Source: Bacillota bacterium (GTDB lineage: Bacteria > Bacillota > Dethiobacteria > DTU022). Taken from it: a stretch of 64,000 bases of DNA. This document shows, piece after piece, positions 3,788 through 16,328 of this stretch. A model generated the notes under the pieces. It did not search any database. It had not been told where the DNA came from and saw nothing but the letters and a program-made list of their open reading frames with translations. A program made the translations under genes and the position numbers. The stretch covers positions 6,609 to 70,608 of the forward strand of contig JAKPEE010000128.1 of NCBI GenBank assembly GCA_029552125.1, in the 5' to 3' direction. The number at the start of each line of letters is the position of its first letter. Within the stretch, counting starts at the first letter, position 1.

Positions 3788-5738
3788 ATGATAACTTGGG
3801 ACGAGGGTTTATTACCCGAACAAAGAAATGCCGCCATGCATATTGGCTCAAACGCATATCTTCTTGCCGGACCAGGAACGGGTAAAACCCTAACTTTGAC
3901 TAGACATATTTGTTACCTTATAGACGTAAAGGGTGTTCAACCAGAGTTAATATGTGTCTTAACATTTACACGTGCTGCAGCTCGAGAACTTTGCCAGCGA
4001 GTTAAAACCGTAGTAGGACATGAAAGAATGCCTAAGATTTTTACTTTACACTCTTTTGCTCTCAGGCAAATACTACGGAATTCTGGACGGCTCACGTTGG
4101 TTCCGCAACCTCTTAGAATCGCTGATGATTGGGAAGAGCGTAATATTATTTTGGAAGACCTGAAAACCTTACTTGGGTTAGGTAATATTAATGAAGCAAG
4201 AGATTTACTAAATAAGCTGTCAGCTGATTGGCAACACCTTACAGTTGAAAAAGGTGAATGGGAGCAACGCTTTGCTAACCCTGCTTTTCTTGGGGCGTGG
4301 AGAGAGCACCGTGAAATATATGGTTATGTTCTTCGTGCCGAACTTGTTTATCAATTAAAACTTGCTTTAGAGCAATACGACGATTTTGTCCTGGAGGGAC
4401 CACCACGGTATCTTCTTGTTGATGAGTATCAAGATCTTAACCGGTGTGATTTGGCAGTTGTGAAAGCGATTGCAGATACTGGTGCTGAAATCTTTGCCGC
4501 TGGTGATGACGATCAAAGTATTTATGGTTTCAGAATGGCTCATCCGGAAGGGATACGTCGGTTCTCTAGGGATTATGCTGATGCCTGTAAACTAGAGCTT
4601 GAAATATGTAAGCGTTGTGATCAAGAAATCCTTGAGCTCGGGTTGTTTGTTGCTTGTCAGGACTACGCTAGGTTGAGAAAGCCTCTTCGGGCGGAAGATG
4701 GTCGTCAAGGTGCAGAGATAGCTCTATTGCGTTTTCAGAACCAATTTCAGGAAGCACAAGGTATTGCACTGCTTTGCCGATATTTGATTTACACCCATAG
4801 AGTTAAACCCGAACAAATACTTATTCTTCTACGAGCGGACCGCAATGGTTGCTTTTCGTCAGTAATCCGACAACAATTGGAGCAACATGTAGTCCCGTGT
4901 AATGTTGCTACTGCAGATACAGATCCATTAAATGAGAGAACAATGCGTATAGTACTATCCTTTCTAAGGTTACTAGAAAATGCAAGTGACCATCTAGCTT
5001 GGAGGACGCTACTTAACCAACGTGATAATAGAATAGGCCCAGGAGCTATAAATTCTGTTTATCAATTCGCTAGAACACAAGGCTTAAGTTTTACGGAAGC
5101 ACTCATTAATATATCTAATGATCCCTCTCTTATAAGTGAACGGTATGGACGATTAATTAATGCCGAAGTTAAAGCCATCAAAGAAATATTACTCGAATTG
5201 CTTACGTTATTACCTTCCGAGGAAGAAGATACAAGTTTGATTGAATCTCTAAGCAGAATAATCAACCACCTTGTGAATTCACCGGATGAACGTAGAATAA
5301 TTCAGGATCACATTAATAAAATTATTGAAATGGCTGAACCAAATTCCATTGGGGATCTTTTACGTGCCATTCAGGTTTCGAAAGAAGACATTGAGCAAGA
5401 AATAGATGAGGGCAAAGTTAATATCTTGACTATGCATAAAGCTAAGGGGCTTACAGCGGAAGCTGTAATTATTGCAGCTGCAGAAGATGAAATACTTACC
5501 TGGTCGTGCTGTAGGTAACATGATTGGTGATGAACGGAGACTTTTATATGTTTCTTTAACAAGAGCAAAACATTATCTATTTATTACATACTGCAACAGT
5601 AGAACTGGACAGCAACGTCATACAGGGAGGACTTCCGGTAATACACGCCGATCTCTTACTCGTTTTTTACAAGGTGCACCAATAACTTCTCAACGTGGAA
5701 TGGAATATATACTAAATTTAAGTGAGAGACTGCCATGA
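3788..5738 (+). pseudogene. UvrD/Rep/PcrA-like SF1 helicase interrupted by a single +1 frameshift near 5493-5518
   Basis: The 576-aa ORF (3788..5518) carries GPGTGKT (Walker A), LLVDEYQDLN (II), AAGDDDQSIYGFR (III) and TMHKAKGLTAEAVII (V). Motif VI, ERRLLYVSLTRAKHYLFITY, continues in the next frame (ORF 5472..5738). The total length of 1951 nt is 3n+1. Hand-counted 60-nt samples give 33-43% GC against about 55-68% in the flanking genes. Confidence 0.8.
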
Positions 5739-8728
5739 TACCTAAAGAATGTAAGCGAATTGCTGAAGTTGATTTTCCCATTGCAGAGGTTTCTAAACAT
5801 TCAGTCCGGGAAAAATCTATACGCCATGGGCATCCTTCTACGCTGCACTTGTGGTGGGCGCGGCGGCCGCTGGCTGCGTGTCGGGCTATGCTTCTGGCGT
5901 TGCTTTTACCTGACCCCTGTGATTCCAATTGCCCGGAAGAATTTAAAATAAATGCGCGAAAGCTATTACCACAGTTGACCGGTAATATAGGTCCTGAGGA
6001 TATAGATTTAAGAAAGGCCATCTTAAAGTTTATCGGGAATTTTGCCGACTGGGACAATGCCGGGAACCCTTTATTTCTTGAAATAGGGCGGGGGTTGGTT
6101 AAAGCAGCCTATCCTGAAGAAAATCCGCTGGTAGCAGATCCTTTTGCCGGAGGGGGGTCGATCCCCCTGGAGGCGCTGAGGCTTGGCTGCGAAGCTTTTG
6201 CCGGCGACTTGAATCCCGTGGCCTGCCTTATTTTGAAAGTCATGCTTGAGGATATCCCCCGGCATGGACCGGAGCTGGCGGAAGAACTTCGCCGTGTTGG
6301 AGCAGAAATTAAGAAAAAAGTAGAGCAGGAACTGGCCGAGCTATATCCCCGGGATCCGGACGGAGCCACGCCTATTGCCTATCTTTGGGCGCGCACGGTT
6401 AAATGCGAATCGCCGCACTGCGGCGCGGAGATACCTTTAGTCAGGTCCTTTTGGCTTTGCAAGAAGAAAAACCGGAAAAGGGTGCTGCGGTATAAGATAA
6501 TCAAAGCCGTTGAAGGGCCGCCAACTGTCGAGTTTGAGATATTTGAACCGAAGTCTGATTCAGAAGTGGCCAAAGGAACCGTGTCCCGCGCCAGGGCAGC
6601 CTGCCTTTGCTGCGGCACTATTCTGCCCCCTGAGCGGGTGCGGGCGCAGTTAACTGAACAGCGCGGCGGGGCGGATGTCATATTTGACCAGGAGGGGCGT
6701 CGTATCGGTGGCGCACGCCTGCTGGCGGTGGTCACTTTGCGGCCCGGAGAGCAGGGCCGCTATTACCGGTTGCCTGCAGAGCGGGATTATGTTGCAGTGA
6801 AAAAAGCAAAAGATCGGCTGGCAAGGATATTGGAAAAATGGGAACACGGGGGTAAGCAGGGATTATGCCCGGTGCCGGATGAGCCTTTACCGCCAATTGG
6901 AACGCTGGGTTTTCGTGTTCAACGATACGGCATGCTTCAATGGGGTGACCTGTTTACAGCTAGGCAGAAGGCGGCATTATCAACTTTAGCGTTGTTTGCT
7001 AGAAAAGTACAATTGTCACAAAACGTGCCAGCTAATGAGGCAGCAGCATTAGTAGTGAATCGATGTGCAGACTATATGAGTTCAATTTGTGTATGGCATA
7101 TCCCAAAGCAACTCATTGCACATACGTTTGGGCGTCAGGCTCTCCCTATTACATGGGATTTTTGCGAATGCAATCCTTTTGGGGAGGGACCAGGAAATAT
7201 AAATGGTGCGGTTCAGTGGGTTTCAAAGGTTGTAACCTCTTGGCCTAACTTTGGTAGTAATATTCAGCAAAGCCCTAGTGCCATGGTTCAGCTAGCTGAT
7301 GCTACTAAACATCCACTTCCTGATGCTACTGCAGCCATATGGTTTACTGATCCACCATATTATGATGCCATTCCATATGCAGATCTTTCAGATTTTTTTC
7401 TTGTTTGGCTTAAGCGAGCACTGCCGGATCATCCATTGTTGCGTGATCCCTTTGACCCCCAAAATATACTCTCACCCAAGCGCCAGGAGGCAGTGCAGGA
7501 TGAGACAAAAAAGGACAACGGACAGATTAAAGACAAAGCATGGTTTGAGAATACGATGGCCAAAGCTTTTGCCGAAGGGCGTCGTGTCTTAAGCAATGAA
7601 GGAGTCGGCTCTGTTGTTTTTGCTCATAAAACTACAGAAGGCTGGGAGGCTTTGCTTACTGGGCTTATTTGGGGTGGTTGGACGATAACCGGATCATGGC
7701 CTATTGCTACAGAGATGGGTTCGCGTCTTAGAGCTCGCGATTCTGCTGCACTCGCTACCAGTGTCCATCTTGTCTGCCGACCCCGGCCCGATGACGCGCC
7801 TGTCGGTGACTGGGGTGAAGTGCTGCGCGAATTACCGCAGCGGGTGGGTAACTGGATGGAATACCTGCAAGAACAGGGTGTTCGCGGTGCGGACCTGGTT
7901 TTTGCCTGTATCGGGCCGGCATTGGAAATTTACAGCCGTTACTCCAGGGTTGAAACCGCCGCGGGGGATGAAGTTAAACTGGCCGCGTACCTGGAGAAGG
8001 TTTGGGAAGTGGTCGGTCGCATTGCTTTGGAGCAAGTGCTGGGTACTGCCGAGGCCCGGGCCCGCAACGGTGCTGCAGGCGCCCTGGAGGAAGATGCCAG
8101 GTTAACCGCCCTATTTCTTTGGACAATTCAGAGTACCAACGGCCAGCGGAATAATGAATCCGCTGATGATGAGGAGGAAAAAGACGACACCAGGGTTGCC
8201 TTTGCAAAAGGTTACAGCCTGGTCTTTGACGTGGTGCGCCGCTTCGCCCAACCGTTGGGGATTGATCTTCCCAGGTGGGAAAACCGGATCATCAAAACCG
8301 AAAAAGGTGTAGTCAGGCTACTGCCCGTCAAGGAGAGGGCCAGGCAACTTTTCGGTGAAGAGGGAACTGCATCTGCGGCGGAATGGATGGAGAGCGAACC
8401 GCAGACAGATATCCAGTTGGTGCTTTTCCCGGAACTTCAGCGGGAGCGCTCGCCTAAAATTCGGGGAAGAGGCCGCCGTAAAATTGCCGTGGACCCCTCG
8501 GCCCTGGAGAGCGTCAGCAGGGAAGAGGTGACTACCCTGGACCGGGTCCATGCCGCCATGCTGCTTCAGGCCGGCGGTCAAACCAACGCCTTGCGGGCGC
8601 TGGTCAAGTCTGAGGTGGAACGCGGCCCTGATTTTTTGCGCCTGGCCAACGCTCTTTCCGCCCTTTATCCCACGGGCAGCGAAGAGAAAAGGCTTCTCGA
8701 TGCCATGTTGCTGGCTGTGCCGCGATAG
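5735..8728 (+). CDS. DUF1156/COG1743-type DNA methyltransferase (DPPY, N6A/N4C class) with an internal Zn-ribbon
   Basis: 997-aa ORF. The N-terminus EVDFPIAEVS...HGHPSTLHLWWARRPLAACRA is typical of DUF1156. SAM motif DPFAGGGSIPLEA; catalytic FTDPPYYD; Cys pairs CESPHCG...CLCCG. The start overlaps the upstream stop as ATGA. Confidence 0.85.
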   Translation: MIPKECKRIAEVDFPIAEVSKHSVREKSIRHGHPSTLHLWWARRPLAACRAMLLALLLPDPCDSNCPEEFKINARKLLPQLTGNIGPEDIDLRKAILKFIGNFADWDNAGNPLFLEIGRGLVKAAYPEENPLVADPFAGGGSIPLEALRLGCEAFAGDLNPVACLILKVMLEDIPRHGPELAEELRRVGAEIKKKVEQELAELYPRDPDGATPIAYLWARTVKCESPHCGAEIPLVRSFWLCKKKNRKRVLRYKIIKAVEGPPTVEFEIFEPKSDSEVAKGTVSRARAACLCCGTILPPERVRAQLTEQRGGADVIFDQEGRRIGGARLLAVVTLRPGEQGRYYRLPAERDYVAVKKAKDRLARILEKWEHGGKQGLCPVPDEPLPPIGTLGFRVQRYGMLQWGDLFTARQKAALSTLALFARKVQLSQNVPANEAAALVVNRCADYMSSICVWHIPKQLIAHTFGRQALPITWDFCECNPFGEGPGNINGAVQWVSKVVTSWPNFGSNIQQSPSAMVQLADATKHPLPDATAAIWFTDPPYYDAIPYADLSDFFLVWLKRALPDHPLLRDPFDPQNILSPKRQEAVQDETKKDNGQIKDKAWFENTMAKAFAEGRRVLSNEGVGSVVFAHKTTEGWEALLTGLIWGGWTITGSWPIATEMGSRLRARDSAALATSVHLVCRPRPDDAPVGDWGEVLRELPQRVGNWMEYLQEQGVRGADLVFACIGPALEIYSRYSRVETAAGDEVKLAAYLEKVWEVVGRIALEQVLGTAEARARNGAAGALEEDARLTALFLWTIQSTNGQRNNESADDEEEKDDTRVAFAKGYSLVFDVVRRFAQPLGIDLPRWENRIIKTEKGVVRLLPVKERARQLFGEEGTASAAEWMESEPQTDIQLVLFPELQRERSPKIRGRGRRKIAVDPSALESVSREEVTTLDRVHAAMLLQAGGQTNALRALVKSEVERGPDFLRLANALSALYPTGSEEKRLLDAMLLAVPR

Positions 8729-8742
8729 GAGCGATTAATGAA

Positions 8743-9174
8743 ATGTTAACCCAGGCGGAAGCAAACGCCTTAATCGCCATGCGGAAGCGTTTTGTCGCCC
8801 CGCGCCCTATTTCCCTGCCGCCGGGAATTGACGAAACACATGAACTAATTGGTGAAGATAAGCGCGAGCATTTTCTGCTTGATCTTTGGCGCGGGACAAT
8901 GCGCCTTTCAAAGTATAAAATGCAGACCAGGGGGCGTATAATTGTCGTACTGGTACGCCTGGATATAAACGGAGCGCCACATACTAATCCGGATGGGCAA
9001 ATACTTGATGGCACTCATTTACACCTTTACCGGGAAGGCTTTGATGACAAATGGGCTTATCCAGTTGATCCGGAATTGTTTCATGATGTCGAGGATGCGG
9101 GAACTGCATTTAAGGATTTCTGTCGCTATTGTCATATAGAGGAGATCCCTCCATACCAGGAGGTGTTATTATGA
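8743..9174 (+). CDS. hypothetical 143-aa protein embedded in the defence operon
   Basis: Clean ORF 14 nt after the methyltransferase stop, and its stop overlaps the next start (ATGA). I cannot place any motif. The conserved-looking core is VVLVRLDINGAPHTNPDG...THLHLYREGFDDKWAYP. Confidence 0.6.
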   Translation: MLTQAEANALIAMRKRFVAPRPISLPPGIDETHELIGEDKREHFLLDLWRGTMRLSKYKMQTRGRIIVVLVRLDINGAPHTNPDGQILDGTHLHLYREGFDDKWAYPVDPELFHDVEDAGTAFKDFCRYCHIEEIPPYQEVLL

Positions 9175-9944
9175 ACCTACATGAATGCCGCCAACTGATT
9201 GATGCATATCTGGATTGGTTGCGCAAGGGACTCAGCGTAGAGCATCTTGGCCAATCCTGTGAATTGACGACTCCTTTTTTGGATAGACATAACGATCACT
9301 TGCAAATCTATGCCTCAACCGAAAATGGAAAGATTATTCTCAGCGATGACGGTTATATCCTTGCAGATCTACGCACAAGCGGGTTGGAAATGGTAACACC
9401 GAAACGTAAAGCCGTGTTGCAATCAATTTTAAACGGATTTGGGGTTAAGACAGACGGCAAACGTCTTTTTGTTGAAACTTCTTCGCGAAATCTTGCTCAA
9501 AAGATGCATTCGTTGATTCAGGCCATGATTTCCATTAACGATATGTTTGTATTAGCTCAACCGCGTGTTGCTTCCTTCTTTTGGGAAGATGTCCGCGCCT
9601 ACCTGGATCAGCATGATGTGCGCTATAGTCCCCGTGTTAAGATTTCAGGACGTTCCGGGTACGATCATGCGGTTGACTTTTTAATTCCTAAATCAAGAAC
9701 ACGCCCCGAACGTATAGTTCAAGCGATCAATGCCCCGGATAGAAATACAATCTCTTCATATCTTTTTATCCTGGAAGACACGTATGAAATAAGAGGTGAG
9801 GAATCAGAAGCTTATGCTTTTCTTAATGATCAGCACAGGACAATCGGCGGTGACGTAATAGAGGCGCTGGAGGTCTATAAGGTTATTCCCGTGTTGTGGT
9901 CGCAGCGGGAAAAAGAAAAGTATGTGGAAGCATTGGCCGGTTGA
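9171..9944 (+). CDS. DUF1828/DUF1829-like protein
   Basis: ATG at 9171 is preceded by CCAGGAGGTG and overlaps the upstream TGA. TPFLDRHNDHLQIYAS..GKIILSDDGYILADLRTSG resembles DUF1828. The C-terminal ISGRSGYDHAVDFLIPK resembles DUF1829. Family assignment is from memory. Confidence 0.55.
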   Translation: MNLHECRQLIDAYLDWLRKGLSVEHLGQSCELTTPFLDRHNDHLQIYASTENGKIILSDDGYILADLRTSGLEMVTPKRKAVLQSILNGFGVKTDGKRLFVETSSRNLAQKMHSLIQAMISINDMFVLAQPRVASFFWEDVRAYLDQHDVRYSPRVKISGRSGYDHAVDFLIPKSRTRPERIVQAINAPDRNTISSYLFILEDTYEIRGEESEAYAFLNDQHRTIGGDVIEALEVYKVIPVLWSQREKEKYVEALAG

Positions 9945-10012
9945 GGAATGGAATTTAAATATGTAATTCTGTGGATTAGCAAGTAGTGAAAAAAACCCGA
10001 GGTGATCCCTAC

Positions 10013-12784
10013 ATGGAACCATGGTACAAAATAGCCACACCGCGTAAAGAAGTACGGGAAGGGCGCTCTTTTAACCCGGATGAATTTGCCATCCACCTGG
10101 AGCAGGTTATCGCCGGAAGCGCCCCCGAGGACTACCGGGACCCGGGGCAGTTCTTTGCCCGCACTTTCTTTACCCGGGCTCTGCGCGATCATGCCGGGAT
10201 GGCGCTCCGGCGCCTGGCCGGTGAGACCTCGAATACAGCCCCGGTGATGACCTTGATTACCCAGTTTGGAGGAGGCAAGACCCATACCCTGACGACGTTA
10301 TATCACCTGGCCGCTGAAGGCGCTTCTGCCGCAGAATACCCGGGGGTGGCCGATTTAATCAGGGATGCCGGTTTAAACCAGGTGCCTGCAGCCCGGGTGG
10401 CGGCTTTTGTCGGCAATGCCTGGGATCCTCAAGAGGGCCGCGAAACACCCTGGATCGATCTTGCCCGGCAGCTGGCCGGGGAAAACGGGGTTAGGGAGTT
10501 GGGTCCGGCAGCTCATACTACGCCGCCGGGGACCGAAGCCCTGGGGCGGGTTTTTAAAGCCGCGGGAGGGCCAGTACTGATTCTTTTTGACGAGGTGTTA
10601 AATTTCCTGAACCGGCACCGGGGCATGGCCGAGCAGTTCCATTCTTTTATTCAAAACCTTACCGTAGCCATAACCGGCACCACCAATTGCGCCGCTATGA
10701 TCAGCCTGCCCCGCAGCCAGGTCGAGATGACCGAATGGGACATGCAGTGGCAGGAAAAGATCACCAAGGTGGTCAGGCGCGTGGCCAAGGACTTGATTGC
10801 CAATGATGAGACGGAAATCAGCGAGGTGGTGCGGCGCCGCCTTTTCGATGATCTTGGTAACGAGCGGGTTTGTAAAAAAGTTGCCGGGGTGTACGCCGAC
10901 TGGTGTTTTGAGCGCCGCGCACAGCTGCCTCCTGAGTGGACAGCTGTTGATAGCGCCGTTACCGAGGCCAGGGCCAGGGAACACCTGCGTAAGCGTTTCG
11001 AGTCCTGTTACCCCTTTCATCCGGCGTTGCTGTCGGTTTTTCAGCGCAAATGGCAAGCCCTCTCACAGTACCAGCAGACCAGGGGCACATTGGCCATGCT
11101 GGCACAGTGGATTTCCTGGGCTTACCGGACGGGATTTACCGAAGCCCGCCGCGAGCCCCTGATTACTCTCGGCTCTGCGCCCCTGGAGGTGCCGGAGTTT
11201 CGCAGCGTGGTGCTGGGCCAGTTGGGCGAATCCCGGTTGGTCGCTGCTATCGATTCAGATATAGCCGGTGAGCAATCTCATGCCCGGACCCTGGATGTAG
11301 ATACCAGCGGGCCGCTGCGTAATATTCATCGCCGGGTTGGCACGGCGATATTTTTCGAATCTTCGGGCGGGCAGGTTGACAGGGTGGCCCATCTGCCTGA
11401 GCTTCGTTTTGCACTCGGGGAACCGCAAGTAGACACGGCTTCTGTTGACAATGCTGCCTTTGCCCTGGAAAACAAATCGTACTTTATCCGCCGGGTCGGC
11501 ACGGACGGTTTCCGGATCGGCTACCAGCCGACCGTGAAGAAGGTGGTAAACGACCGGCGGGCCTCTCTGGATGAAGAAACAGAGATTATTCCGGCTATGC
11601 GCGCCCTGGTCAAGCAGGAATTCGAGCGGGGGTCGAATGTTCCACTGGTATGGTTCCCTACCGATAGCGCCGCAGTGCAGGATACACCCAGGTTAACCCT
11701 GGTTGTTGTTGATCCGGCGGTTGAATGGACCGGAAAAGGACAGATCCGCCAACAGATAGCGGAATGGACCAGGCGGCGCGGCAATTCGGATAGACTCTAC
11801 CCGGCGGCTTTGGTTTGGTGCTTGAAGAAGCCGGGACGTGAGCTGCGGGAAAAGGTAGAGCTGTGGCTGGCCTGGCGTAGGGTGCAAAAGGAGGTTGCCG
11901 AGGGCACTCTGGGTGGCGAATTCGACCGCGCTGACCTGTCGGATATTCGAGGGAATGTGGCCGAAGCGGAGACAGCCGCCAAAGATGAGGTCTGGGGCGG
12001 CTATCGGTACGCGGTTATCCTGGATAAAAATGAGCCTGATTGGCTCAAGGTCATAGACCTGGGAGCGGGACATGCCAGCAGCGGAGATACACTGAGCGGC
12101 CGGGTAATTACAGCATTGACAACTGGAGGTTTATTGAGCCAATCTGTAGGTGCAGGCTATATTGAACGGCATTGGTGGCCCCCTGCTCTGAAGGAATCCG
12201 GTGCCTGGCCCCTATCCAGCCTGCGGAAGAGCTTCCTTGACGGCTCGCTGACCCGGCTGCTTGACCCGGATGTTACTTTGCGGCAAAAAATTGTTGATTT
12301 TGTAGCACGAGGCGACTTCGGCCTGGCTTCCAACCCGAAAGCCGACGGCACCTATGAGCGGGTCTGGTTTGCTGAAAGAATCGAGCCTGAAGAAGTAAGT
12401 TTTGAACCGAAGGTATTTCTTTTACTGAAAGACAAAGCTAAAGCTTTAAAAGCGCCGCCCGAACCCGGTGTTGTGCCTTATCCTCCACACGGCGGCATAT
12501 CATTGCCGCCAGCGGATCCAGAACCTGTTCCTCAACCGGAGCCTCAGCCGGGGCCGGTTCCGGCCGGCAGCAAACGCACATTTCGGATTTCCGGGGAAAT
12601 CCCGCCTGAAATCTGGAACCGCCTGGGAACAAAGATAATCCCTAAACTCCGCAGCGGCAGCGATTTGCAGGTCAATGTATCATTTATCGTTACCGTTGAC
12701 GAACATCAGGCCCACAACCTCCAGGCTGAACTCAGGCAATTGCTGACAGATCTGAATCTGTCTGAAAAAATAAAAATTGATTGA
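10013..12784 (+). CDS. DUF499 (COG1483) AAA-type ATPase
   Basis: ATG at 10013 lies after GAGGTGA. The N-terminal MEPWYKIATPRKEVREG is typical of DUF499. P-loop-like ITQFGGGKTHTL; Walker B-like VLILFDEVLNF. Pro-rich linker, then a C-terminal domain. Confidence 0.8.
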   Translation: MEPWYKIATPRKEVREGRSFNPDEFAIHLEQVIAGSAPEDYRDPGQFFARTFFTRALRDHAGMALRRLAGETSNTAPVMTLITQFGGGKTHTLTTLYHLAAEGASAAEYPGVADLIRDAGLNQVPAARVAAFVGNAWDPQEGRETPWIDLARQLAGENGVRELGPAAHTTPPGTEALGRVFKAAGGPVLILFDEVLNFLNRHRGMAEQFHSFIQNLTVAITGTTNCAAMISLPRSQVEMTEWDMQWQEKITKVVRRVAKDLIANDETEISEVVRRRLFDDLGNERVCKKVAGVYADWCFERRAQLPPEWTAVDSAVTEARAREHLRKRFESCYPFHPALLSVFQRKWQALSQYQQTRGTLAMLAQWISWAYRTGFTEARREPLITLGSAPLEVPEFRSVVLGQLGESRLVAAIDSDIAGEQSHARTLDVDTSGPLRNIHRRVGTAIFFESSGGQVDRVAHLPELRFALGEPQVDTASVDNAAFALENKSYFIRRVGTDGFRIGYQPTVKKVVNDRRASLDEETEIIPAMRALVKQEFERGSNVPLVWFPTDSAAVQDTPRLTLVVVDPAVEWTGKGQIRQQIAEWTRRRGNSDRLYPAALVWCLKKPGRELREKVELWLAWRRVQKEVAEGTLGGEFDRADLSDIRGNVAEAETAAKDEVWGGYRYAVILDKNEPDWLKVIDLGAGHASSGDTLSGRVITALTTGGLLSQSVGAGYIERHWWPPALKESGAWPLSSLRKSFLDGSLTRLLDPDVTLRQKIVDFVARGDFGLASNPKADGTYERVWFAERIEPEEVSFEPKVFLLLKDKAKALKAPPEPGVVPYPPHGGISLPPADPEPVPQPEPQPGPVPAGSKRTFRISGEIPPEIWNRLGTKIIPKLRSGSDLQVNVSFIVTVDEHQAHNLQAELRQLLTDLNLSEKIKID

Positions 12785-13200: not shown

Positions 13201-15108
13201 ATGAAAAAGCCAACCCGCGAGCTGGTTGAAGCCTTTTTTTCCTGGTTCTGGAATAGTGAACACTCCACATATGAAGATCATTATGCACAAATGGTGACGC
13301 AGGAAAATCTGTCCCAGATGGAACGTGATGAGTTCATAAATTTCTTCTACCAGTTCGCCTACGACGGCGGAAAGGTGCAAACCGGTGGGTATCGGACAGC
13401 CTCGGACTTCCGCGCCACCATTGAGGAGAAGTATGACAAATTCCGGCTGTTTATTTTGGAACCGTTCACGGAATCGTTCGATGAATACCGGTGGCTTGAG
13501 CGCGCCCGCGAGTTTCCATACTTCGGTGTGGGCCTGGCGACAATCTTCCTAAACCGTGTTGACAAGAAGCGTTTTGCTATCGTCAACAATAAGGCGGTTG
13601 AGGCAGTTAAGCTCTTCGGCGTGTCAGTCCCAACGGGTATCGTGGCCCGCTATCAAGCCGTCCGCGACGCCTGGCGGCAGCTTATCGAGTGGTATCCCGA
13701 ATTTGAAACCTTTTTCCGCACGGATGCACTCAGCCAGTTCCTTATCGGCGAGGATTCCGGCAAGCCGTGGGCTGATAAACTCAGGAAGCATAATGGTGAG
13801 TTAACAGAGAAGCGGTATTGGATCTACGCGCCGGGGGAGCGGGCCAGGCACTGGGACGAATACAGCCGCAACGGCCTGATGGGTGTTGGATGGGACAATA
13901 TTCGGGAAGATCTCTCCTTATATCCAACAGAAGAAAAATTGAGGGAAATGTACAACGAGCGGTATGGCGACCAGGCCACAGATGTGGATTTCCGGCAGTT
14001 GTGCGATTTTGTGCATAAGATGCGGATAGGTGATGGCGTTTTCGTCAAGCGCGGGACCAAGGAACTTGTTGGATATGGTGAAGTGTCGTCGGCATATTTC
14101 TATGACCCGGAGCGGCCGGAATACCGTCATCTTCGCCGGGTGAAATGGAAGTATACCGGCAAATGGACGATTCCGGATGACTGGACTAGTTTGCCGGCAA
14201 AAACGCTAACGGAACTCCATGACAGTAATCGCGTACAGCGTTACCTGGCGCTACTCAGGGATTCGAACAAAATAATAAACCCGGAATACCCGCTGGCACA
14301 ATTCGCTGCAGATACCCATTTTGACATAGAGAATATCCAGCGTTGGGTGCGAGCAATTGAACGAAAGAAACAGGCGATCTTCTACGGGCCACCGGGAACG
14401 GGGAAGACGTTCGTTGCAGAGAAGATGGCCCGGCACTTGATTGGCGGCAGCGACGGCTTCAGCGAGATTGTCCAGTTTCATCCTTCCTATGCCTATGAAG
14501 ATTTCATACAAGGATTGCGGCCGCGTGCTGTATCCGGCGGGGGCTTGGAATATGCCATGGTCCCGGGGCGCTTCCGGGAATTCTGCAGACGGGCCCAAGA
14601 GTGCAGCGGCCGGTGCGTCTTGATTATAGACGAGATAAACCGGGCGAATCTCTCGCGCGTGTTTGGAGAGCTAATGTTCTTGCTCGAATATCGCGATCAG
14701 GCTATACCGTTGGCCGGTGGAGAGCGATTTCAGATACCGGCTAACGTCAGGATTATCGGGACTATGAATACAGCTGATCGCTCAATAGCCCTTGTAGATC
14801 ATGCGCTGCGCCGCCGCTTTGCCTTTCTGGGGCTGTATCCAAATTACGAGATACTGCGGCGCTTCCATGCCAATACAGGCTTCTCACCAGAGGGCCTTAT
14901 TGGTCTGCTCGAACGGCTGAATGCCGCCATCAATGACCGGCACTACTCGGTGGGCATCAGTTTTTTCTTATCTCCAAACATAAAGGAAGAGATTGAAGAC
15001 ATTTGGCAAATGGAAATTGAGCCGTACATCGAGGAGTTATTTTTCGATCAGCCGGACAAGGCGGCCAGTTTCGCATGGGAGAAAATCAAAGCAGAGATTT
15101 TGAGATGA
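13201..15108 (+). CDS. mcrB: McrB-like AAA+ GTPase (type IV restriction subunit) with an N-terminal extension of about 390 aa
   Basis: FYGPPGTGKTF (Walker A), LIIDEINRANLSRVFGELMFLLEYR (the McrB signature) and IIGTMNTADRS. The N-terminal 390 aa precede the motor. Confidence 0.85.
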   Translation: MKKPTRELVEAFFSWFWNSEHSTYEDHYAQMVTQENLSQMERDEFINFFYQFAYDGGKVQTGGYRTASDFRATIEEKYDKFRLFILEPFTESFDEYRWLERAREFPYFGVGLATIFLNRVDKKRFAIVNNKAVEAVKLFGVSVPTGIVARYQAVRDAWRQLIEWYPEFETFFRTDALSQFLIGEDSGKPWADKLRKHNGELTEKRYWIYAPGERARHWDEYSRNGLMGVGWDNIREDLSLYPTEEKLREMYNERYGDQATDVDFRQLCDFVHKMRIGDGVFVKRGTKELVGYGEVSSAYFYDPERPEYRHLRRVKWKYTGKWTIPDDWTSLPAKTLTELHDSNRVQRYLALLRDSNKIINPEYPLAQFAADTHFDIENIQRWVRAIERKKQAIFYGPPGTGKTFVAEKMARHLIGGSDGFSEIVQFHPSYAYEDFIQGLRPRAVSGGGLEYAMVPGRFREFCRRAQECSGRCVLIIDEINRANLSRVFGELMFLLEYRDQAIPLAGGERFQIPANVRIIGTMNTADRSIALVDHALRRRFAFLGLYPNYEILRRFHANTGFSPEGLIGLLERLNAAINDRHYSVGISFFLSPNIKEEIEDIWQMEIEPYIEELFFDQPDKAASFAWEKIKAEILR

Positions 15109-16328
15109 CTGCAGGAAAGCTTCGCATTGTTGAACTTACCGAATACCAAACCCGTTCCTTACGCGAAGATGAACTGGCGGAGGAGATCGGCAGGGCCATC
15201 CACACTTTTTATGGCAAGCAAATTGCCGTCCAACCGCCGTCCTTTCTCACCGACAGGTGCTGGCAACTGACGTCACAAGGATGGGTCGGCTATATCCCCC
15301 TTACGGATGCCTTTCACCTTTCGCTGGTTCCCAAGGTTCCCGTTGCAAACCTGTTCCGTATGCTGGAGTACGCTTATCGTCTTGATTTTACAATACTTGA
15401 AGGATTGATGGACTCGGAGTCGATAACAGAACTGTACGAGCGGCTGGCGCTTGTACTGGCAAAGCGTGTGCTGGATCGGATTCGCCGGGGAGCATACCGC
15501 TCTTATGTGCCGCAAAATGACTATCTTCCCTATATCCGTGGCAGGATCGACGTCATGGATCATGTGAGAAATCTTCAGCGAGTTGCACTGCCGTGCAATT
15601 TCGAAGAGCACACAGCAGACCTGGAAGAGAACCAGATTCTGCTCTGGACTCTTACAAGAATCCTGGAAAGCGGAATATGCACTGAGCGGAGCCTGCCGCA
15701 TATTCGACAAGCACGCCGTGCATTGCTCGGGCTTACGACACTTCAACCTTTCTCCGCGCGGGCATGCAGCAATCGGCTCTACAACCGTCTGAACCAGGAC
15801 TACGAACCGTTGCATGCGCTGTGCAGGTTTTTTCTTGAGCACATCGGACCGACACATCGGCTAGGGAACCACCGCATGCTCCCAATTTTAATCGATATGG
15901 ATAGGCTGTTTGAGCTGTTCGTTGTTGAATGGCTAAGGAAGCACGTTCCCGCTCGATACTCTGTCCTGGGTCAGGAGAACGTGCAATTTCACATGGGGCA
16001 TATCGTCTCCATCAGCATCGACATTACTGTAGAAGATTTGGAAACCGGGCAGACGGTGTTTGTTCTGGATACGAAGTACAAGGCAGCCGCAAGTCCGGCG
16101 GCGGCCGACTTAGAGCAGGTCGTTGCGTATGCAGAGGCAAAGGGCTGCACGAGGGCTGCCCTAATCTACCCCACTGAGCTTGCATGCCCCATCTCCGGTT
16201 TCTGGGGTAGGGACATCAGTGTGCGTTCTCTGGCCTTCCGTCTTGACGGGGACATTGAGGAGTCCGGCCACCGTCTCCTGGAGGAGCTCCGATTGTGGGC
16301 GGAGTCCGGGGCGCCCGGCTCCCGGTGA
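15105..16328 (+). CDS. mcrC: McrC-like nuclease subunit
   Basis: ATG at 15105 overlaps the mcrB TGA (ATGA). GWVGYIPL...LSLVPK is a typical McrC N-terminus. The C-terminal VLDTKYK...DLEQVVAYA is a PD-(D/E)xK-like core. Confidence 0.8.
   Translation: MTAGKLRIVELTEYQTRSLREDELAEEIGRAIHTFYGKQIAVQPPSFLTDRCWQLTSQGWVGYIPLTDAFHLSLVPKVPVANLFRMLEYAYRLDFTILEGLMDSESITELYERLALVLAKRVLDRIRRGAYRSYVPQNDYLPYIRGRIDVMDHVRNLQRVALPCNFEEHTADLEENQILLWTLTRILESGICTERSLPHIRQARRALLGLTTLQPFSARACSNRLYNRLNQDYEPLHALCRFFLEHIGPTHRLGNHRMLPILIDMDRLFELFVVEWLRKHVPARYSVLGQENVQFHMGHIVSISIDITVEDLETGQTVFVLDTKYKAAASPAAADLEQVVAYAEAKGCTRAALIYPTELACPISGFWGRDISVRSLAFRLDGDIEESGHRLLEELRLWAESGAPGSR

Follow-up and report, generated by a model that had tools for sequence, protein, structure and literature searches.

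Embedded genes have been found in 62.7% of Hma systems, and seven of the nine Hma-embedded cassettes that were tested protected against phage (Payne, Hughes, Fineran, Jackson 2024, bioRxiv 10.1101/2024.01.29.577857). The cassettes HEC-01 to HEC-09 of that work are foreign, co-oriented units lying between hma genes. PDC-M24 was put forward there as a "guilt-by-embedding" candidate anti-phage system and is listed in the supplement as cassette CAS_00098, FAM_00129>>FAM_00065, with the entry "assign as candidate". For TumE (DUF6516, PF20126), from the TumE-TumA superfamily, toxicity by inhibition of translation has been validated; its fold was described as two helices packed on an antiparallel sheet of seven strands, without a PDB match (Durairaj et al. 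2023, PMC10584680). In DS-6/HipAD, a validated two-gene defence system, the non-toxic partner is the DUF1829-containing DS-6B, for which binding to both the toxin and DNA is predicted and which was proposed as the antitoxin-like partner of a HipA-like kinase (DefensePredictor, PMC13092281). The subject here is a pair of overlapping genes, A and B, located between hmaB and hmaC on contig JAKPEE010000128.1 of a Bacillota bacterium (Dethiobacteria, DTU022; assembly GCA_029552125.1). The window is the whole stretch that was analysed, 64,000 nucleotides from positions 6,609 to 70,608 of the forward strand of the contig, and positions in Table 1 are those of the window.

Both proteins were matched to PADLOC and Pfam models. 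Protein A matched PDC-M24A (model PDLC04538, 3.5e-48, residues 1-139) and Pfam DUF6978 (1.8e-41), and protein B matched PDC-M24B (model PDLC04539, 2.2e-97, residues 3-252) as well as Pfam DUF1828 (8.7e-28) and DUF1829 (3.2e-26). An initial annotation, made from the letters of the DNA, had called B DUF1828/1829-like and had placed the pair between a methyltransferase and a DUF499 ATPase; the Pfam matches agree, and the flanking genes are HmaB (DUF1156) and HmaC (DUF499). The order A then B, adjacent and on one strand, is that of PDC-M24, of which the window pair is a member, sharing with it the tight coupling and the embedding in a methylase-based defence locus. HEC-01 to HEC-09 are likewise placed between hma genes but belong to different families (ABC ATPase, TOPRIM, NERD, PIN, GmrSD-like, and RNase), and none has DUF6978 or DUF1828/1829. 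Both A and B also matched PHROG families of unknown function. A literature search returned no paper naming PDC-M24 and none on the function of DUF6978. It is close to certain that the pair is a PDC-M24 cassette, autonomous and lodged in a cargo slot of the Hma operon, on the evidence of the following paragraphs.

Pairing was followed from both genes. The A-centred scan used one genome per species and gave 166 A relatives, for which 80 loci were kept; B came directly after A in all 80, which span more than 15 phyla, and the tblastn matches of A and B abutted or overlapped by one base in most of them. The initial annotation had tied the idea of a module to the two homologues being adjacent elsewhere, as they were in every kept locus. 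The B-centred search covered a sample of 401 genomes from the window's phylum; DUF1829 was found in 12 of them, and with the window excluded A lay upstream of B in 8 of 10 evaluable loci. Of the remaining loci, one held an intact B behind an unrelated small open reading frame (ORF), without A, and in the other B was frameshifted and came immediately after a type I specificity gene. Temperate phages of Lactobacillus, Staphylococcus, Streptococcus, and Latilactobacillus also had the pairing, with identity as low as 25-30%; among them are Javan357 (L116 2044-2508) and Javan249 (L115 2001-2474), where an A-like ORF upstream of the DUF1828 gene is unannotated in GenBank. Javan357 and Javan249 are streptococcal (satellite) prophages, and the A copy of Javan249 is without the H-x-H motif described below. 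A profile search of the whole library with A gave 1,185 representative clusters (50% identity), nearly all of them stand-alone proteins of about 145 aa. Longer DUF6978 members had no second Pfam domain, except for one apparent A-B read-through, and no informative fusions were found.

Most copies of the pair were outside Hma. In 13 of the 80 loci the pair was between HmaB and HmaC, and three more loci had Hma remnants, making about 16 that are Hma-associated. Approximately 64 of the 80 had no Hma genes within 10 kb, which answers the question of co-occurrence outside Hma-like loci raised by the initial annotation. The neighbours at these loci were varied and mostly housekeeping genes, with no recurrent partner and with a few toxin-antitoxin or restriction-modification genes; among those scanned were six ClpB-type genes in Acidobacteriaceae. 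At six loci of the Acidobacteriaceae/Terriglobales (L013, L016, L020, L024, L057, and L059) the pair had a conserved chromosomal site, separated by about 140-190 bp from a ClpB-type chaperone gene upstream of it, and the copies at this site were often followed by a DUF2442-type small gene.

The junction between HmaB and HmaC was compared among relatives of the window locus. In a genome of the same phylum with HmaB and HmaC 73% identical (G102) the junction was empty, at about 110 bp, and in another with HmaB and HmaC about 80% identical (G294; L085 1290-1465) only the last ~50 codons of B were left, a remnant that is a deletion scar of the pair. A third genome (G135; L087 2758-3756, minus strand) had an unrelated 332-aa ORF at the junction, for which no Pfam or PADLOC match was obtained. 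In distant Hma loci (~30% identity) HmaB came immediately before HmaC. Sister Hma loci carried other cargo between HmaA and HmaB, namely a Ppl-like PHP-ATPase with a Schlafen/AlbA protein (L006 2731-6736) and HerA with RmuC and an unknown 363-aa protein (L022 2365-6994). Because empty, scarred, and alternative states of the junction were all observed, together with other cargo in sister loci, the HmaB-HmaC junction is a cargo slot that can be occupied by the pair, among others. The slot may also be filled by more than one unit; in a Bryobacteraceae Hma locus (L019 8735-9829) the pair was followed by a 117-aa ORF, a 178-aa HEPN protein, and then HmaC. The 117-aa ORF and the HEPN protein resemble a toxin-antitoxin pair of the MNT/HEPN type that is stacked in the same slot. 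A possible PD-(D/E)xK motif, '...FVIEAKRLD...', is present in the 332-aa ORF of G135.

At one locus (L044 9788-11302) an intact pair was bordered on one side by residues 931-997 of the HmaB C-terminus (78% identical) and on the other by residues 9-36 of the HmaC N-terminus, both of them remnants. The pair at L044 has persisted beyond the Hma system that hosted it. Embedded and free copies were intermixed in the maximum-likelihood tree built from B, and at least 3-4 changes of context were needed. A free-standing Bacillota copy (L002) grouped with the embedded L001, inside the four-member clade of the window; it is the closest free-standing copy, with B 86% identical. The pair is a self-contained, horizontally mobile two-gene cassette that stands outside the Hma machinery.

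A role for the pair as an accessory subunit of the Hma subtype seen here, such as a missing nuclease or sensor working only with HmaA, HmaB, and HmaC, would agree with the use of the same HmaB-HmaC junction in 13 Hma loci from many phyla, with a divergence of the pair similar to that of the hma genes, and with a pair that runs in the direction of the operon and is here without a separate promoter. This is very improbable in view of the loci without nearby Hma genes, the empty junction at 73% identity and the scar in another relative, the distant loci with HmaB directly before HmaC, the closely related free-standing L002, and the phage copies without any Hma. A core component of Hma was ruled out by the empty, scarred, and other-cargo junctions together with the many copies that have no Hma nearby. 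The suggestion of the initial annotation that the pair is a sensor or effector sub-module of Hma was not borne out, as close Hma relatives were without the pair or had only its scar, and its other suggestion, a nested independent two-gene unit, held: A and B were paired in every locus kept, mostly outside Hma, and also in prophage lysogeny modules.

The two genes are tightly coupled. The frame of gene B is open over 9129-9944 and the ATG at 9171 gives the 257-aa protein; the ATGA overlap named in the initial annotation was read from the sequence at the same place, 9171-9174. The stop codon of HmaB (TAG) is at 8726-8728 and the start of A is 14 nt downstream, a gap too short for a promoter. A promoter scan gave a site count no higher than in shuffled sequence. 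Whole-gene G+C content (GC) was 0.479 for A and 0.442 for B, vs 0.53 for HmaB and 0.572 for HmaC, and GC at third codon positions (GC3) was 0.45 and 0.42, vs 0.51 and 0.61. The lower GC of the pair had been reported in the initial annotation from samples of about 50% at 8881-8940 and 40% at 9301-9360, which were recomputed as exactly 0.50 and 0.40. The GC of the pair was below that of the 5-kb flanks in 70 of 78 species loci, with a mean difference of 6 points. The GC dip is thus a property of the gene family and not a sign of recent insertion here, and it does not date the insertion.

Protein A was modelled with AlphaFold2 from 121 homologues, with a predicted local distance difference test score (pLDDT) of 93.7. 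The model has an N-terminal helix (4-12), seven antiparallel strands with a long hairpin (64-81/87-97), and a C-terminal helix (119-129). Foldseek gave no match in the PDB (best E 0.09), and in the viral library only a single uncharacterised protein. The modelling of both proteins proposed in the initial annotation yielded a confident fold without a PDB match for A and, as described below, a nuclease-like C-domain for B. Among 107 diverse relatives, residues K15, L70, R72, H80, N82, P83, H92, and H94 were invariant and R63, D84, Y96, and E98 nearly so, and the core R-x-D...APH...H-x-H persisted in phage copies. The stretch NGAPHTNPDG..THLHLYREGFDDKW, noted earlier as conserved-looking, is the most conserved part of A among these relatives. 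Since this core is polar and invariant, it points to an active site more than to a surface used for binding only. The earlier proposal of a small His/Asp enzyme fits this pattern, and more specific identities as a HIT or cupin protein did not hold up.

For the HIT-like enzyme, NPDGQILDGTHLHLY resembles the HIT stretch PDAGQIVFHLHLHLL, and the candidate was rejected because the alignment of A with 18 HIT proteins by hhalign was confined to 14 columns at the motif (probability 1.7%, P 0.03) and no HIT protein was among the Foldseek matches of A. For a cupin-like metal motif (G-x5-H-x-H-x3-E) the motif order was wrong and no cupin was among the Foldseek matches. Sub-threshold matches to Ntox24 were obtained in 8 of the 107 DUF6978 members (best E 0.0031), with no Ntox24 members among the 401 genomes. 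Sequence searches of the PDB with A, B, diverse-A, and TumE profiles gave nothing meaningful.

For the comparison of A with TumE, 21 TumE proteins were collected from genomes within the phylum of the window. Local hhalign of the diverse A alignment against TumE covered 80 columns with P 0.0024 and a score of 23.0, which was reached in 0 of 150 column shuffles (mean 11.6, standard deviation 2.4, maximum 21.2). The register placed R72-x-D74 on R-W-D, A78-P79-H80 on A-P-H, and H92-x-H94 on H-H-K-H, so that the order of motifs would be common to both (TumE RWDNAPHH...FPHHKH; A RLDINGAPHTNPDG...THLHLY). Both proteins are small (TumE ~116 aa, A 143 aa), both are without a PDB match, and both are encoded bicistronically with an unrelated partner. 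The two helices and seven strands of the A model fit the published description of TumE, the comparison being one of descriptions. As the TumE structure is absent from the PDB, the silence of Foldseek is no evidence against the link. The differences are that A has an NPDG loop and TumE does not, that A is upstream of its partner and TumE mostly downstream, and that the partner of A is a 257-aa two-domain protein and that of TumE a small DNA-binding antitoxin. Charge was uninformative, because A and B are both mildly acidic and the isoelectric points of TumE homologues range from 5.1 to 10.3. Overall, these alignments make the TumE link of A marginal, a supported lead and not an established homology.

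The AlphaFold2 model of B had a pLDDT of 80.5 and two domains. The C-domain (residues ~136-245) of this predicted model was matched by Foldseek to Card1, VC1899, and NucS (probability 1.0) and XisH (0.98), and also to BamHI, MspJI, and R2 endonuclease, with the alpha-beta-beta-beta-alpha-beta core of the PD-(D/E)xK fold matched. The N-domain resembled the type III secretion chaperones InvB, SicP, and SpcU at lower probability. Card1/Can2-type effectors were the best two-domain structural matches (6xl1_A, 1xmx; probability 1.0, 223 aligned columns) and are likewise arranged with a sensor at the N-terminus and a nuclease fold at the C-terminus. However, the template modelling (TM) score was only 0.38 and identity 7-12%, the N-domain of B is secretion-chaperone-like and not a CARF Rossmann fold as in Card1, and, unlike these effectors, B has no linked source of cyclic oligoadenylate and a non-canonical catalytic motif. 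Four residues are conserved within the clade of the window: E139 in the first helix, D169 in the second strand, and both E180 and R181 in the third. The canonical (D/E)xK position (i+2) lacks a Lys, D169 is replaced by Asn in three loci (L076, L080, and L151) and E180 by Thr in prophage Lj965, and only R181 of the four is invariant in 73 sequences. Other residues of B that are invariant across the family are mostly Gly, aromatic, in the N-domain, or structural. Because of the non-canonical motif and the single invariant residue, the catalytic competence of the modelled nuclease domain is uncertain.

These features of B bear on the main rival explanation, in which the roles are reversed: B would be a sensor-coupled PD-(D/E)xK nuclease that cuts DNA on infection, and A a regulator, co-sensor, or inhibitor. 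The placing of the C-domain among restriction-type nucleases, the acidic residues conserved in the window's clade with R181 invariant in 73/73, and the Card1-type arrangement of a ligand- or partner-binding N-terminal domain before a nuclease all agree with it, as do the antitoxin-typical upstream position of A and the higher conservation of B. It is nevertheless somewhat less likely than the reading favoured below, since the missing Lys, the substitutions of D169 and E180, and the invariance of R181 alone among the putative catalytic residues of B speak against it, and the strictly invariant His/Arg/Asn/Asp cluster of A looks catalytic and not regulatory. Further points against it come from the disrupted copies.

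Disruptions were counted with contig-end truncations set aside. A was disrupted and B intact in seven loci, each at a different position, the reverse was seen in two, and both genes were disrupted in three. With A making up 36% of the combined length, the skew of 7 vs 2 has a binomial P of 0.013. Together with the locus that has an intact B and no A, the seven loci indicate that B does not act as a toxin tolerated only in the presence of A. It appears that B alone is tolerated and that loss of A is the easier path, as expected if A is toxic, and A is favoured as the toxic effector because it is disrupted more often than B and because intact B occurs without A.

The favoured reading, with a probability of about 0.42, is a toxin-plus-partner abortive-infection module in which A is the effector and B its neutraliser and sensor. 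The pair, lodged in the hmaB-hmaC cargo slot, would be transcribed with the hma operon. A would be a small enzyme-like effector with a putative site of R72-x-D74, A78-P79-H80, and H92-x-H94 and a TumE-like architecture. B would be made in a fixed ratio with A through the ATGA coupling and would hold A inactive, and its chaperone-like N-domain and endonuclease-fold, probably DNA-binding C-domain would sense infection. Infection would then break the A-B complex, and freed A would stop the cell. We infer the defence function, the toxic half, and the trigger of the pair from the comparisons given here. An effector role for A is consistent, by analogy, with DS-6/HipAD, where a DUF1829 protein is the antitoxin-like partner (PMC13092281); the toxin of DS-6 is a HipA-like kinase, the other domain of DS-6B is DUF3037 where that of B is DUF1828, and the likeness in DUF1829 is by domain name. 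A defence role is supported by the activity of 7/9 tested Hma cassettes, by the Ppl-like, HerA with RmuC, and HEPN cargo of sister Hma loci, and by the position of the pair between repressor and integrase in temperate phages.

Several results weigh against this toxin-plus-partner reading. PDC-M24 is a catalogue candidate only. A is upstream of B, and the upstream gene is the usual position of the antitoxin. Conservation is higher in B, with a mean column identity of 82% against 63% for A, whereas toxins as a rule change more slowly than antitoxins. The nuclease fold of B is confident and its acidic residues are conserved in the main clade, which would suit an effector. Many of the broken copies came from long-read metagenome-assembled genomes, in which frameshifts may be assembly errors. 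Two further hhalign runs of A with TumE gave P 0.016 and 0.06 with probabilities of 1-3%, the R-x-D / APH / H-x-H register being identical in all three runs; the Pfam TumE model had no match in 107 DUF6978 members at E <= 5, and a TumE hidden Markov model built here gave E >= 0.11 against 111 DUF6978 members, with nothing significant. No inverted repeat shared upstream of 63 free-standing copies was found in a simple exact-arm search, and most free-standing copies were outside defence islands.

The contexts of the phage copies and of some chromosomal copies relate to what the cassette does for its carrier. In prophage Lj965 and phage 37 the pair was between a CI-type repressor and the integrase, co-oriented with both; Lj965 has an ImmA-like protease beside the repressor, and its pair is two genes upstream of an annotated superinfection-exclusion gene. 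The pair was likewise next to the integrase in the Latilactobacillus and Javan phages. The pair thus occurs in lysogeny modules of temperate Firmicutes phages, and the interval between repressor and integrase is a classic site of lysogen-expressed exclusion and abortive-infection genes. Two copies of the pair were directly downstream of a type I specificity-subunit gene, and a decayed B came after HsdS in L142.

A selfish addiction (toxin-antitoxin) cassette, whose loss kills the host and which hitch-hikes in Hma loci and prophages with no anti-phage role, would explain why most free-standing copies are among housekeeping genes and not in defence islands, the patchy distribution (DUF1829 in 12/401 genomes of the phylum), the low GC of the pair everywhere, and the frequency of decayed copies. 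Such a cassette is improbable, given that the pair recurs in slots of defence operons, both at HmaB-HmaC and downstream of type I specificity genes, and in the prophage slot of exclusion and abortive-infection genes, and that Hma-embedded cassettes were active against phage in 7/9 tests (bioRxiv 10.1101/2024.01.29.577857). It also overlaps with the toxin-plus-partner reading, as many toxin-antitoxin modules act as defences too.

Positions of the pair and of the surrounding genes are given in Table 1. For HmaC the ATG at 10013 is the most likely start, in preference to the GTG at 9986 given by the ORF tool, because it is preceded by GAGGTGA and matches the starts in two relatives (L085 and L086). 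The operon of the window holds two Hma cargo units, the UvrD-like gene and the pair. The UvrD-like gene, which has a GC of 0.41 and a GC3 of 0.29 and is without a GajA partner, is the second cargo gene of the operon. The Hma operon and the McrBC pair form a small defence island.

Table 1. Features of the gene pair and its surroundings in the window.
Feature	Position	Strand	Remarks
HmaA	341-3757		Hma operon
UvrD-like superfamily 1 (SF1) helicase gene	3788-5518		Between HmaA and HmaB; PADLOC GajB-like 8.6e-46
HmaB, DUF1156 adenine methyltransferase	5735-8728	+	PADLOC HmaB 9e-115, Pfam DUF1156; upstream edge of cargo slot
AGGAG ribosome-binding site for A	8727-8731	+	Overlaps HmaB stop; sequence reading
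Gene A (ORF A)	8743-9174	+	143 aa; DUF6978, PDC-M24A; small His-motif partner, candidate TumE-like effector
AGGAGG ribosome-binding site for B	9158-9163	+	Within 3' end of A, 7 nt before ATG of B; sequence reading
ATGA overlap, A stop (TGA) and B start (ATG)	9171-9174	+	Direct sequence reading; translational coupling
Gene B (ORF B)	9171-9944	+	257 aa; DUF1828+DUF1829, PDC-M24B
HmaC, DUF499 ATPase	10013-12784	+	PADLOC HmaC 4.1e-92; downstream edge of cargo slot
McrBC type IV restriction pair	13201-16328		Directly downstream of Hma operon

The pair is already catalogued as PDC-M24 and the embedding of such cassettes in Hma is published, and the discovery value is modest for this reason. Added here are the comparison of the slot in close relatives (empty, scar, and alternative cargo), the B-centred and phage checks of co-occurrence, and a residue-level description with a quantified TumE test and the pseudogene asymmetry. 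The locus illustrates "guilt by embedding" cleanly in a natural setting, with one Hma operon and two foreign cargo units. Beyond the catalogue entry it offers handles in the site of A (R72, D74, H80, N82, D84, H92, and H94) and its possible TumE link, in the non-canonical nuclease-fold partner, and in the pseudogene asymmetry that predicts the toxic half. A more far-reaching proposal, quite doubtful at present, is that PDC-M24 is a new branch of the TumE superfamily, in which a DUF6978 toxin is held by a large two-domain partner whose restriction-endonuclease fold has turned into a DNA or infection sensor and whose N-domain is a secretion-chaperone-like clamp. If true, abortive infection of the toxin-antitoxin type would here rely on an antitoxin architecture without precedent, in a system present in more than 15 phyla and in prophages. 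If confirmed, the findings would give a function to three widespread domains, DUF6978, DUF1828, and DUF1829.

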